Shown here: positions 1,311 to 55,293 of the stretch, one piece after another
Layout: each line of letters begins with the position of its first letter
How positions within the stretch are numbered: position 1 is the first letter of the stretch
Assembly: GCA_012295275.1 (NCBI GenBank)
Contig: CM022670.1
Coordinates: 3,968,001 to 4,032,000, forward strand
Direction: 5' to 3'
From: Chrysomallon squamiferum
Lineage: Eukaryota > Animalia > Mollusca
Length of the DNA stretch: 64,000 bases
Translations under genes and position numbers: made by a program
Notes under the pieces: generated by a model
The model's input: the letters and a program-made list of their open reading frames with translations, nothing else
The model's database searches: none
Told to the model about the DNA's origin: nothing

Positions 1311-1418
1311 AGAGTTGTTTCCCTTGAACCATCTACCATAAAATGAAATGTGATAAATGCTATTAGTTATAAACGTTATTGCATCAGAAAAATACTCGGT
1401 CAATTAATAATATATATT
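1311..1418 (+). promoter_or_regulatory. Upstream module of tRNAi gene (AGAGTTGTTTCCCTT, ATTGCATCA, TATA-like); also present before the other copies
   Basis: Same motifs at similar offsets before tRNAi copies at 50698, 53259, 55294 (see findings). Confidence 0.6.
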
Positions 1419-1444
1419 TGAAGGTATGATATAATATGTATGCA

Positions 1445-1516
1445 AGCAGAGTGGCGCAGTGGAAGCGTGCTGGGCCCATAACCCAGAGGTCCGTGGATCG
1501 AAACCACGCTCTGCTA
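1445..1516 (+). tRNA. tRNA-iMet-CAT: initiator tRNA-Met (CAT)
   Basis: AGCAGAGTGGCGCAGTGGAAGCGTGCTGGGCCCATAACCCAGAGGTCCGTGGATCGAAACCACGCTCTGCTA; A1:U72 pair, three G-C pairs in the anticodon stem, ATCGAAA T-loop (A54) diagnostic of eukaryotic initiator; TTTT at 1527. Confidence 0.98.
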
Positions 1517-1833
1517 AGCAGCACAGTTTTATTGTTTTCTTCAAAACGTATTTAATAATAAGTTACACAAAGGTTTTTTTTTTTTTTTAATTATTATTAT
1601 TATTATTAATTTAATTTAATTTTGTTGTTGTTGTTGTTATATTATATATGGGTGAGTATATGTGTGTGTGTGTATATATATATTTGTATTGTTTGGTAGT
1701 CACAAAACCGAAGTTTACTACTGTAAAATTTGACAAATTTTAGAATTAAACTTGTAAACTGGCCAGATAATGTTTATGGATTTTTTTAATTAAAAATAAA
1801 CACATGACAATAGCAGTTCTATGGATTATCGAC

Positions 1834-1839
1834 TTTATT
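1834..1839 (-). terminator. Candidate poly(A) signal AATAAA for SLC6 gene A (implies about 4.3 kb 3' UTR)
   Basis: TTTATT on + with GT/T-rich downstream sequence on minus; roughly coincides with the left edge of the CpG-depleted domain; other AATAAA are common in this AT-rich DNA. Confidence 0.3.
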
Positions 1840-4800
1840 TCAACAAAATATTTCCACAGAAACAAAAACAGACAAAATTATCACCGACCACTAACAAATA
1901 AAGTATCTGAAGACATCACCTTTCCTTCAGTTTTTAAAATGAAAGTTAAAAATGTACACTGTACAAACATAATTAGTCAATATCAACTAACGATTTAAAA
2001 TCATTTTAATTTCCCATGATTCTATTTGTTTTATTTATTTATTTCAGGATTTTTATTTATTTATTCATTTATATATTGTACAATTTTAAATTATTTATTC
2101 ATTTCACATATTTTACTTTTTTTTTAGAAATAACAATCATTTACTACTGTTAATGCCTTTTTTTTTTTTTTTCTTTTTTTTTTTTTTGTACATTTGTTAT
2201 GATTATAATAATTCCCTCTTATCAGAAATATTCTTGTTGATGACTTTAAAAACAAAAATAGTTACAAAAAAATTAAAATAAAGTATAACAAAATACCCAT
2301 TTCATGTTTACCAGGAATATACCAAAAATATTATTTTTAAAAAGGAAATAAAAAGGACAATGGTGACATATCAATATAGAAGTGATTTTGAAATTTGTTT
2401 TAAAGCATGTGTATCTTCGAAAAAGTAATAATACATTTCAACAAGCACTTAACCAGAAAAAAAAGATTCTTTGTTGATTATATTGTTAAAAAAAATGTAT
2501 TTAAAAAGTGCTGGCATCTCACTTAAATAACTCAGAAAACATCAGCACAGAGCCCACATTTTGTAGATGATAGCATCAGTGCATGAAGATCAAATTACTT
2601 CATTTGTTATGATAGCATTTTATAAATACAAGCACAAGTAATCATACATTTTACCAGTGTAAATCATGGAATATGACGATCAACCATAAACAAGTGAATG
2701 AAAAATTTGAAGTGTTAACTGTATCAAATAAAACTTATTGTACAGAAATTGAATGATTATTTTGCTGTAATAACAATAATAATAATAATAATAATAAACT
2801 AAGACTAAACACTCTGTTTCTAAAACAATTTTTTTTTTTTTATGCCCAAAAATCAAATACTTCCAGACACATTCCCACTGAACTAAGCAATTGAGAGAGT
2901 TGAAGATCTGGGGTGTTCATTCACCAAGTTAACTAATAAGAGAAGGGATTTTGAAACAACAGTCTGTTATGTTAACAGTATTTTCAATCTGGAAGGCTGG
3001 CTTGTTTGCATTGATGTCACTGAATTATTTGTCAGTACAACAAATAAATATTGCCTTTTATACTGAGGTAGTCTTCAATGAAGTGAATTAAAGCTAAAGT
3101 ACCATAATCTTGGAATCCAGAGTGATATTTCAAAGTCTATCACATTCAAATTTTGTATTTATTAATGATGATTAAATATCATTTTGTATCAAACATTTAA
3201 AAGATGACAGTTAATGAACATATTCATTTATACTGAAGACGTAGTTCAAGGTTGAACAAGTATGTATTATAATTTTATATATCAAAAATGTTTTTATTTT
3301 TATTTGACTAGTACATATTAACAGAATAAACTGCAATTTAAATGATGAAAAAAAAAAAGAAAAAAAATTGGGGAAAAAGATTTTACATATCATAATAATT
3401 AATTATTAATATTGAAGAATCTGATGAAAACCAACAATACAATAATTGTAAGATTTATCACCAACTGAAACAAATTTGTTAAATCACCTCGCAGCTGATG
3501 TTGTAAAACATTTCAAAACCTCTTCAAATCAAAATTGTGCAAAGAAGAAAGATAACACTATTTACGAAGATTACCTATCAAACAGGGTCATGTCGTAATC
3601 AAAGGTGAAAAACAAACTACAGGCAGCTGTTAATCACAGTACATTAAAAAAAATCTGATGGCAAATAAACAGCAGTGATTAATTAGGCTGTTGACAATGA
3701 TGAGGATTCTGGTGGAGTAGCAACATCTTAGCTCACTGCTGGAAGAACCAGCCTAAGATTCTATTTTTCAGTCAGTGGAAGAATTGTTTCCATGATATCC
3801 TATTGTTTTTTGTATTATAAATTTATGGTAGTTTTATAGCAAGTAAAAATTTGTATTAAATATCTGGTGAAAGAATGTAATGTTTTACTTATAAATGACA
3901 TTTCTAGAAGTAATTCAGTGTTTTAAAAGTAATAACAATTATCATAATTAATGTCAAATTCTGTCGAGCCAAACATAAGTAAAATTCCATTTGAAAAGTG
4001 ATTTTAAAAATTGTGAAACGCAAAAAGAAAAGAATGAAAGCTGCCCAAAAAGATATATCTGAATTATACATTAAATGCAAAAATCTAATATCCAGATTGT
4101 TTTTATGTTTGTGTATATAAAATTAATAATAACAAATAAAATAAAAAATATTATGTAGAAAAGGTCTCTAATAATAAAATAGTAAAAGTGTAATACAAAA
4201 AGTCTATTTACATTTATAAACGACAGAAGCCAAACCATTAATTAATGTCATGAAAACAAAAAATTCAGTACAAAGATTCCAAATTTCATCCTCAAATCAA
4301 ATTTTCAAAATTTTAAAATATATCTAAAAGCCACACAATTAAAGACAAAAATGCATTTTCAAAAAAAAAAAGAAGAAAACAGTTAATAAAAATAAAAATG
4401 ACGTAAAATAGACATCTGTACAAGAAATAAAAGTTAGTATTCTGTGTCTCTGCATTCAATAAGCCAGATTCACACAAGATTTTAAAACCTGGCAATAAAT
4501 CAGAAGTCTCCCACACAAATATTTTCTCTTGTTCATGAAAAGCCACGTTTCTTCAAACAAATCAAAACACAAGGCATCTTTTTGTGTGTGTGTGTGCAGG
4601 TAATAGCAGTTAATTTTAGCTTGTGTTCAGAGACATCTGTAACTGTGACTTAAATTGTAAAACTGATTTAATTACTGTGTGCACAACCAGTTAGGTTCAG
4701 TAATGAACACTGTCAACACAGAGGTTCCCAGCTTACGTGAACCAAACTCACCACAGCAATTGAGTGAAAAATGTTCACCAAGACATTTTTAAAAACACAA

Positions 4801-53258: not shown

Positions 53259-53330
53259 AGCAGAGTGGCGCAGTGGAAGCGTGCTGGGCCCATAACCCAG
53301 AGGTCCGTGGATCGAAACCACGCTCTGCTA
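53259..53330 (+). tRNA. tRNA-iMet-CAT: initiator tRNA-Met (CAT)
   Basis: Identical to the 1445 copy; TTTT immediately downstream. Confidence 0.98.
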
Positions 53331-53480
53331 ATCTTTTATTTTCAATACTATAAAATATTAGATCGTTCAGGTCAGATAAGTATAAATCAATAATCTCTGT
53401 GATATTAAATAATGAACTAATGTTCGTAATAATTATCTAACAATAACGGTGGTAATAAGACCACCATTTAAGTACCTAAC

Positions 53481-53751
53481 CAGTGGCGTTCAGAAGTCTG
53501 GTGATGCCTGTGCCCAACACATTGATTGTATGCCAGAAATACTCAAGTATAAGGCCTACTACTAAGAAATATTATTTGAAAGGTAGATATTTTGAATATG
53601 TAAAACTCAGATGAAACATAAAATAAACACTTTATTCGATTTAAATATAAATCAACCAAATTTATTAAGTTATTTTCTCCGATTCGATGCCCCCTCCATT
53701 TGGATGCACGGGGCCACCGTCCCTTCGGCCCGCCCCCTCTGCACGCCACTG
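53481..53751. mobile_element. Non-autonomous DNA transposon (MITE), hAT-like, 271 bp
   Basis: TIRs CAGTGGCGTTCAGA / TCTGCACGCCACTG (14 bp, 1 mismatch); 8-bp TSD TACCTAAC (53473-53480) / TACTTAAC (53752-53759); CAG termini plus 8-bp TSD typical of hAT. Confidence 0.8.
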
Positions 53752-54820
53752 TACTTAACCATTTTATTTATTTATTTATATTTATTATATTACTTTATTT
53801 TCTTTCATTTATTTATATATTTATTTTTAAAATACATTGGTACCTTGACTTACGAGTTTAATTTGTTCCGTGACCGAGCTCGTATCTCAGTTTGCTTTTA
53901 TATCAAATCAGTTTTCCCAACTGAAATTAATTGAAATAGCATTAATCCGTTCCAGCCCCCAAAAACCAGCCCATTTTTTCTTTCATTCCTTTTTCTATTT
54001 CTTTTTTTTTTTTTTTTTTTTTTTTTTTTTTTTTGTAACATGTTTTTAAATAAGAAAAATGTATTTGTAAATGACAAATATTGTATAAAAAAACAAAATA
54101 AAAGAGAATGTAAAGAAATAAATTGGCTTTTGTGAAGTGTATTTATCTTGGAGATCAGACAAATTATTTTAACGCCTTTGGCTGGAGTTACATCCTTCAT
54201 CGACTCCTTCAGCTTCAATATGGTACATATCGTAGAAATATTACGCTCGTACTACCTCGCCAAGTCGACTACATGCACACCTCGCTCATGTTTTTTATTA
54301 TTTCATGCTTTAATTCAATGGACATCATCGGCTTCTTCTTCTCAGCACTGTCCTTGGCAGTCACTTTCTTAGGATCCCATGGTCCGAAAAAATTGCTTGT
54401 AATTCGAAAAACTCGTAAGTCAAGGTACTACTGTATTAAATTAAGTGGGTTTTAAACCACCAGTCACACACCCCGAAAAAAAACAAAAACAAACACAAAC
54501 TAAAAAACAACAACAAACAATAATAATAATAATTATAATAGTAACAAGAAGAAAAAGGAGAACAACCAAATCAGATTACAGTTATTCATAAACACCAGTT
54601 TGCAATAATAAAACTCACAGCCTAAAGTTAAAGGGAAGAAACTTGATATTAACGAATATAAAACTGTTCACCAAATTTAAAAAAAGAAAAAGAAAAAGAA
54701 AAAAAAAAAAAAAAAAAAAAACAGCAACAAATAACAGTAGAATAGTTTTTACATGAAACTGCATCGGAAAATACCATTAATTATCAAATGCACGGATTGC
54801 AGATAAATAATTTCCAACAT

Positions 54821-54892
54821 AGCAGAGTGGCGCAGTGGAAGCGTGCTGGGCCCATAACCCAGAGGTCCGTGGATCGAAACCACGCTCTGCTA
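54821..54892 (+). tRNA. tRNA-iMet-CAT: initiator tRNA-Met (CAT)
   Basis: Identical to the 1445 copy; long T-run about 15 nt downstream. Confidence 0.98.
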
Positions 54893-55293
54893 ATATATTT
54901 ATCAAAATTTTTTTTTTTTTTGCTAACATTATGAAAAATGTTTCATTTGTTTCTTAACCCAGTCAGTATTTACGACTGAAACGAACATTTGCGAGATGAA
55001 TGATCTCACAAACAAAAATTAAGTTCTGGCAAATTAAGTTCTCGCTACTGATGAAATTTCAAATCAGCATTTCAATGTAGCCTGCTGAGTTGTTATTTCC
55101 ACATGTTTGAAATCATAATATTCCCACACAGCACAGGAACGAGGTGGGAAATATTAATTTTATTAGACTTCGTTACACGGAGTTCTTTCCCTTTAGCTTT
55201 TCAAACACCAAAAACGTAATCGTTACATGAAAGTTATTGCATCAGATTACAGTTACAATATATATTGACGACTTGTTCAATGTACAGTATCGA

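Follow-up and report, generated by a model that had tools for sequence, protein, structure and literature searches.

A positioned C/EBP-ATF-type element upstream of initiator tRNA genes in Chrysomallon squamiferum and in unrelated genomes

Introduction

The regulation of identical tRNA genes one by one is an open question, and it is posed in compact form by a stretch of 64,000 nt from Chrysomallon squamiferum (GCA_012295275.1, contig CM022670.1, forward strand, 3,968,001-4,032,000; hereafter "the window", meaning the whole stretch analysed). The window constitutes a built-in comparison, as its near-identical initiator tRNA-Met (tRNAi) genes occur both with (three copies) and without (two copies) an upstream CARE (C/EBP-ATF response element). 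ATF4 is known only as an activator of RNA polymerase II (Pol II) genes and as an indirect, global RNA polymerase III (Pol III) repressor, and a positioned, cross-species CARE at tRNAi genes would be a testable link between the integrated stress response and the supply of its sensor molecule; if true, cells could make more of the tRNA whose shortage turns ATF4 on. A preliminary description of the window had placed before these genes one conserved tripartite module made of a GAGTTNNTYCCCTT box (box 1), an ATF4-C/EBP core and an AT box. The three parts are analysed separately here, and it can be deciphered from the sequence comparisons that a positioned CARE-like element before tRNAi genes is well supported.

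Initiator tRNA genes and their CARE in the window

The five tRNAi genes, all on the plus strand, occupy 1445..1516 (gene 1), 50698..50769 (gene 2), 53259..53330 (gene 3), 54821..54892 (gene 4) and 55294..55365 (gene 5), and are identical save for one T-stem base in gene 2. All five were identified by ARAGORN and Rfam (RF00005, 57.7 bits for gene 1). Hallmarks of initiator tRNAs are the pairing of A1 with U72, an anticodon stem with three G:C pairs, and A54/A60; the same pairs and an A54/A60 T-loop could be read off gene 1, and the window genes, having the tRNA fold, the CAT anticodon and these hallmarks, belong to the eukaryotic initiator tRNA-Met family. All tRNA bodies are intact with internal A and B boxes, and a run of four or more T follows each of the five genes within 25 nt (T4, 11 nt downstream, for gene 1).

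The CARE word TGATG[C/A]AA lies upstream of three of the five genes, in each case within an identical 12-mer, TTATTGCATCAG, at 1376..1387, 53197..53208 and 55234..55245 on the plus strand, the core TTGCATCA starting at -66 of gene 1, -59 of gene 3 and -57 of gene 5. The bare 9-mer ATTGCATCA is within chance in the window (4 copies; shuffle mean 0.92, maximum 5), and three of its four copies, at -67, -60 and -58, are those inside the 12-mer, which itself occurs three times against a shuffle mean of 0.01. All four letters are found at the free position of the CARE in the window background. The strings and coordinates quoted in the preliminary description were all present in the sequence, and its ATF4-C/EBP core stands for genes 1, 3 and 5; the degenerate cores that it had added at 54758 and 50656 were rejected, as each breaks the TGATGNAA consensus at two fixed positions, which leaves genes 2 and 4 with box 1 (inverted at gene 4) and no true CARE.

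Further CARE-like words were observed away from this position. The TGATGAAA form occurs at 1198-1205 (plus strand, -247 from gene 1), and a CARE-consensus word at 55049..55056 on the minus strand (TGATGAAA as read on the plus strand) lies at -245 from gene 5; both may be chance. A fourth ATTGCATCAG, at 42938-42949 with no tRNA nearby and between two transporter genes, could be a Pol II CARE.

Recurrence of the CARE upstream of external initiator tRNA loci

Metagenome contigs were scanned for a tRNAi gene, which gave at least 124 stretches with 126 matches on them; all external counts given here are among the matches listed. After six matches with less than 150 nt of upstream sequence had been dropped, the remaining 120 were grouped by upstream similarity into 76 clusters with one representative each. 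The motif was fixed beforehand from the window, the test zone was -110..-30, and the background consisted of 448 equal-sized windows from the same loci. A scan of viral contigs for a tRNAi gene gave no match.

Upstream of the external tRNAi genes, TTGCATCA was found in 13 of 76 loci against 4 of 448 background windows (p = 7e-9), and the CARE word in the form TT[GT]CATCA in 16 of 76 clusters, where the background gave 10 of 448 (p = 1.4e-8). When 32,768 8-mers were screened without bias, TGCATCAG came first (p = 3e-9), followed by TTGCATCA (p = 7e-9), and dinucleotide shuffles of the 76 windows yielded the CARE word 1.2 times on average and at most five times in 1000 rounds. Its position is equally restricted: in bins of 50 nt the word was counted 17 times at -100..-50 and 0-2 times in each other bin. 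Eleven of the 19 plus-strand CAREs start within -62..-52, a number reached by none of 100,000 random placements, and five minus-strand CAREs lie at -75..-61. Mean flank identity around 13 plus-strand CAREs was 0.28. Six tRNA gene-body variants, G+C contents of 0.18-0.47 and 18 of 82 assemblies are represented among the sites, and the enrichment persists whichever of the five id-prefix groups is removed (p no higher than 1.8e-5). The gene-external element matching an ATF4-C/EBP CARE that had been proposed from the window alone is thereby borne out, at the level of sequence, as positionally conserved upstream of tRNAi genes in many unrelated genomes.

Alignment of the 22 listed external sites gives RTT[G/T]CATCAG, that is, CTGATG[C/A]AAY. 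At the free position G was counted 14 times, T four times and A or C never, giving TGATGCAA or TGATGAAA; a purine precedes the word in 21 of the 22 sites and a G follows it in 17, while the stress-type TGATG form accounts for 19 and the CREB-C/EBP type TGACG[C/A]AA for three. The CARE consensus in the literature reads TGATGxAAx, and GTTGCATCA in CARS and TGATGCAAT in SARS are examples with demonstrated function (PMC5175342); sites agreeing with it precede three of the five window genes and occur in 16 of the 76 external clusters. A preferred form is given as ATGATGCAAT, and TGACGNAA, seen three times among the sites here, is reported to bind ATF4 dimers (PMC10637723).

Some loci carry a pair of CAREs spaced by about 21-23 nt, or some two turns of the helix, either inverted (L001, L004, L028, L102; -75 and -54) or direct (L008, L065; -81 and -58). 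A second 7-mer, GTCATTG/CAATGAC, was observed at -110..-30 in six of 76 external clusters and none of 448 background windows (p = 8e-6, about 0.06 when corrected). Directly before the mature 5' end, ATCGA or a near form is often present, as in the CARE-bearing loci L010, L047, L110 and L111 and in window genes 3 and 5; these bases are possibly start-site context.

Initiator versus other tRNA genes

The elongator control started from the 74 non-Met tRNA genes whose upstream window was complete; 11 sharing the zone with a Met gene were dropped, and the remaining 63 formed 43 clusters. In this control, which is small and not genome-matched, the CARE word precedes non-Met tRNAs in 2 of 43 clusters, compared with 16 of 76 for tRNAi (p = 0.017). 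Of the two CARE-bearing non-Met windows, one faces a tRNAi copy head-to-head and one runs into the end of the tRNA ahead of it. Among mostly intergenic non-Met windows the count was 1 of 27 (p = 0.04), and among non-Met neighbours in loci with a CARE-bearing tRNAi it was 0 of 10. The elongator Met genes present in external loci L003 and L069 differ from tRNAi throughout. A link of the CARE to initiator rather than other tRNAs is, on these counts, suggestive only.

A dense tRNA array with similar gene order (Ile-AAT, Leu-CAG, iMet, Val/Arg/Lys, Leu-CAA) recurs in many assemblies, namely in L003, L012, L031, L034, L040-L043, L063, L070, L076, L098, L099, L120 and L121, and the tRNAi of these array loci has a CARE in 2 of 15.

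The A/T-rich zone and box 1

TFIIIB covers roughly 40 bases before the start site, over an A/T-rich zone. In the window this zone lies at 1409..1418 (gene 1, at -36), 53222..53231 (gene 3, at -37) and 55257..55266 (gene 5, at -37), all on the plus strand. The word AATAYATATT described earlier is indeed present in three upstream copies; as a word it is within chance, with six strand-hits at four places against a shuffle mean of 2.0 and a maximum of 6, and a specific AT box was therefore rejected, since shuffle counts reach the observed number. It is an ordinary, generic TATA-like A/T-rich zone. A+T content at -40..-31 was 0.77 in external loci with the CARE, 0.63 in those without and 0.82 in the window genes, as is expected of a TATA-like seat for TFIIIB. 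The combination that characterises type 2-hybrid promoters, a positioned upstream factor site with a TATA-like zone, is thus present, the A/T contrast being descriptive and given with no significance test.

Box 1 is found upstream of all five tRNAi genes and of a decayed sixth copy. The strict form GAGTTNNTTCCCTT occurs four times in the window, compared with a mean of 0.0 and a maximum of 0 in 100 block-wise dinucleotide shuffles, the pattern having been drawn post hoc from these very sites. On the plus strand it lies at 1312..1325 (gene 1, at -133), 50587..50600 (gene 2, at -111), 53146..53159 (gene 3, at -113) and 55180..55193 (gene 5, at -114), and it is inverted at 54631..54644 on the minus strand (gene 4, -190 to -177). 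When every position of both strands was scored with a matrix built from these five boxes, two held-out copies came fifth and seventh, namely 828..841 (plus strand, 617 nt before gene 1; 18.9 bits) and 52603..52616 (minus strand; 17.3 bits), the next best score in the 64 kb being 14.4 bits. Leave-one-out ranks of the five were 2, 3, 6, 6 and 8, the last being that of gene 4. The extra copies noticed before near 827 and 52602 were in this way confirmed, and the second of them is explained by its location, because it stands about 160 nt ahead of the decayed tRNAi gene, whose unit aligns with the gene-4 unit, where the box is likewise inverted.

The decayed copy, absent from the preliminary description, turned up in a sensitive search (aligned part 52778..52826, plus strand; blastn 71% over 49 nt, E 0.003; nhmmer E 0.13). 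The stretch 52560-52860 aligns with the gene-4 unit at 54590-54900 with a score of 87 (200 shuffles: mean 48, maximum 77), and it is a probable duplicate of that unit by this alignment. It retains the inverted box 1, and one variant was seen within it in three runs. A hidden tRNA remnant behind the 828 box was rejected, since none was found and the alignment of 780-1100 with 1260-1560 was not above shuffles; a larger inverted segment around the gene-4 box was rejected as well (score 61, shuffle maximum 78). Weaker box-1-like words lie far from tRNAs at 16334-16347 and 46182-46195. Comparison by eye with the consensi of Staf/ZNF143, NF-kB, CSL, COE and RFX gave no fit among these five.

Outside the species box 1 was not enriched: 7 of 75 external windows and 7 of 195 background windows scored at least 10 bits (rank test p = 0.56), with one of the seven training sites of this matrix one base out of register. 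Box 1 was consequently rejected as a cross-species element. A window-like layout, with a box-1-like word at -112 to -115 and a CARE near -55, was found only in L024, L025 and L037, which belong to one assembly, and box 1 may for this reason be clade-restricted. In each of runs X2, X3 and X6 an unrelated contig carries an exact copy of the 18-mer 53142-53159, which spans the gene-3 box, a hint that box 1 copies exist elsewhere in the genome. The box could act as a second, lineage-restricted site for a DNA-binding protein, in either orientation. With the full layout of box 1, CARE and AT box present at three of five genes, with box 1 confined as described and the AT box generic, the single conserved tripartite module of the preliminary description is not supported.

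Sequence between the boxes has largely diverged among the window genes, with identity at chance level, in agreement with what had been described. Genes 3 and 5 share about 45 nt spanning the CARE and the AT box (score 39, shuffle maximum 28). Within-species variation was compared over 52290-53250 (961 nt, four runs), a span lying outside the five tRNA genes and the gene-4 and gene-5 flanks. Seven differences at six places were seen, one at the first G of the gene-3 box 1 (C in run X6) and none in the CARE or AT box, numbers too small to allow a test; the module lay outside the coverage of run X3, and in the three runs that span the gene-3 CARE it was free of variants.

Genomic surroundings

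The window is microsatellite-rich, has a G+C content of 26-36% and carries exons of two genes of the sodium:neurotransmitter symporter (SLC6) family (PF00209). These are divergent, one running from 29229 to about 6800 on the minus strand and the other from 60427 on the plus strand, with the four-gene tRNA cluster between their first coding exons. A near-perfect hairpin of about 90 nt at 38343-38435 is probably a short inverted-repeat element; several microRNA models matched it, and all Rfam microRNA matches in the window were rejected as lying under the gathering score.

Proposed mechanism and alternative explanations

Taken together, the sequences show a CARE word at a nearly fixed position, which recurs although the flanks are not homologous, is less frequent ahead of other tRNAs and has an A/T zone just downstream. 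The layout is that of an internal promoter, an A/T zone at about -40 to -28, a CARE adjoining it upstream, and, in this lineage, box 1 a further 50-120 nt up in either orientation. A bZIP (basic leucine zipper) dimer, whose identity we infer from the motif, would at the CARE stabilise TFIIIB or keep the region open, with activation rather than repression as the outcome. ATF4/C-EBP-type activation of these Pol III genes through such a hybrid promoter, the dimer likely helping to load TFIIIB, is the reading that we favour, as somewhat probable. At the EBER genes, transcription by Pol III is supported by upstream ATF sites and by ATF-2 (PMC2945964), upstream elements assist the 7SL and vault genes (PMC10498592, PMC10218354), and 5' flanks of human tRNA genes alter how BRF1 and Pol III bind there (PMC10791582). 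ATF4 and C/EBP are old bZIP families kept across metazoans, according to a survey that included a mollusc and cnidarians (PMC4736632).

A stress feedback could follow from such activation, since scarcity of the eIF2-GTP-Met-tRNAi ternary complex leads to ATF4 translation (PMC11806354), and human cells that lose mature tRNAi induce ATF4 (bioRxiv 10.64898/2026.05.28.728624). Under stress, with Pol III repressed elsewhere, the CARE would spare tRNAi genes or raise their output and so help to restore initiation, and a direct CARE would let these genes escape ATF4-driven MAF1 repression. This feedback loop is put forward tentatively, as possible rather than probable, and the same reserve applies to the broader proposal that tRNAi genes across many invertebrate lineages may be direct ATF4-C/EBP targets in an ancient negative feedback exempting them from the stress shutdown of Pol III.

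Several points weigh against activation by ATF4 and the feedback built on it. The site is missing from 60 of the 76 external clusters and from two of the five window genes, and the phylogenetic independence of the external loci rests on flank divergence. The contrast for exact TGATGCAA is not significant (13 of 76 tRNAi, 2 of 43 non-Met; p = 0.08), and the small elongator control, drawn solely from tRNAs lying no more than 500 nt from a tRNAi gene, consists mainly of array loci in which the tRNAi mostly has no CARE (2 of 15, the largest cluster). When eIF2-alpha is phosphorylated, the limiting component may be eIF2-GTP and not tRNAi, and mature tRNA has a long life. Induction of ATF4 in K562 cells inhibits Pol III via DDIT4/SESN2-mTORC1-MAF1, and ATF4 knockout leaves mature Met tRNA unchanged and lowers basal pre-tRNAs (PMC11806354); these data give no support for the loop in human cells. 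Human ATF4 intervals (S7 of PMC10637723, in the ABC-filtered subset available) overlap iMet-CAT-1-2 (chr6:26286355-26286596) and iMet-CAT-1-3 (26312750-26313514); the rows listed include none over iMet-CAT-1-4, 1-6 and 1-8, and for 1-1 the closest row lies some 420 nt off, the gene coordinates having been verified for 1-2, 1-3, 1-4 and 1-6. These peaks are also unspecific and were taken as uninformative, as the same available rows cover Gln-TTG-3-1 and most nearby histone promoters.

The alternative that survives best is that of a constitutive bZIP activator site, perhaps common to highly used tRNA genes of several isotypes, which would serve basal Pol III output and have no link to stress. 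The C/EBP-beta and ATF3 chromatin immunoprecipitation signals over 63% and 100%, respectively, of the most factor-bound human tRNA genes (PMC7567086) speak for it, as do the gain in basal Pol III output from ATF sites at the EBER genes, the three external sites of CREB-C/EBP type and the small size of the elongator control. We nonetheless deem it rather unlikely, since 19 of the 22 listed sites are of the stress type and the word is depleted before non-Met tRNAs, including same-locus neighbours.

That the CARE word is bound by a factor other than ATF4/C-EBP, such as another bZIP dimer or a Pol III accessory factor, appears improbable. The motif is identified by sequence only, bZIP dimers are described as having overlapping and emergent sites (PMC9941348), and the G following 17 of 22 sites would agree with such a factor; against this, a free position limited to G and T and the preceding purine fit a CARE, and octamer, AP-1 and C/EBP-PAR palindrome consensi showed no clear peak at -100..-50 (0, 4 and 0 hits in 76, respectively, the 4 being those of a palindrome counted on both strands). 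Slightly less probable still is the possibility that the sites are Pol II enhancers, for instance of the adjoining SLC6-family genes, lying in open chromatin with no tRNA role. Exons of two PF00209 transporter genes do lie in the window, solute transporters are listed among ATF4 targets (PMC9941348) and CAREs are said to enhance regardless of location (PMC5175342), yet an enhancer of this kind would have no reason to hold, in genomes that are unrelated, to an 11-nt distance window and a biased orientation with respect to the tRNA start. The weakest alternative, that the shared words are neutral leftovers of tandem duplication with flank or chance in A/T-rich DNA, draws on the duplication of flank in the decayed gene-4 unit copy, the 45 nt shared by genes 3 and 5, the chance-level counts of the AT box and bare 9-mer and the variant at the first base of box 1, and is very improbable overall, because the boxes are kept despite variable spacing and inversion amid flanks at chance identity and the CARE recurs at the same distance in unrelated genomes; it appears largely refuted for the CARE on sequence grounds, is fair for the wording of the AT box and retains some probability for box 1.

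Comparison with known systems

In the literature searched, from which subscription and older flank studies mostly fell outside, no description of a CARE upstream of tRNA genes was found, and a search for TGATGCAA together with tRNA gene and polymerase III returned 0 papers. A homology between human and mouse in the 5' flank of tRNAi was reportedly described in 1984.

The element resembles published CAREs in its exact TGATGxAAx consensus, inclusive of the CARS and SARS forms, and in its use of either orientation, and differs from them in that it lies, in invertebrate hosts, a constant distance ahead of a type 2 tRNA gene transcribed by Pol III. In architecture the genes are akin to EBER1/2 of Epstein-Barr virus, with their upstream ATF, Sp1 and TATA sites (PMC2945964), and to 7SL, vault RNA and BC200 (PMC10498592, PMC10218354), which likewise combine internal A and B boxes with upstream Pol II-type sites and a TATA-like zone, and knock-down of ATF-2 lowers EBER output (PMC2945964). 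Those genes, however, are not tRNA genes, the EBER factor is ATF-2 and not a C/EBP-ATF4 composite, and there is no stress-pathway link to the gene's own product.

A second likeness is to the control of single human tRNA genes, in which 5' flanks and sequence-specific factors tune particular genes: ZZEF1 acts at tRNA-Lys-TTT-3 (bioRxiv 10.1101/2025.04.26.650725), SOX4 at each of the eight iMet-CAT-1 genes (cited in PMC10377016), and 5'-flank control of individual tRNA genes was described by Gao et al. 2024 (PMC10791582). The features reported there are GC-rich or poly(A) tracts or locus-specific motifs, and the available portions of these works report no cross-species, isotype-linked, positioned CARE; the available text on differentially expressed mouse tRNA genes likewise records no strong upstream motif (PMC4216921).

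Finally, the integrated stress response is already tied to tRNA transcription through ATF4 by the ATF4-DDIT4/SESN2-mTORC1-MAF1 route (PMC11806354). Unlike that route, which is indirect, global and repressive, the element described here implies direct, gene-selective and probably activating control. Overall, a hybrid type 2 promoter with a bZIP site is a known architecture, and the ATF4-type composite at tRNAi genes across unrelated genomes appears to be new.

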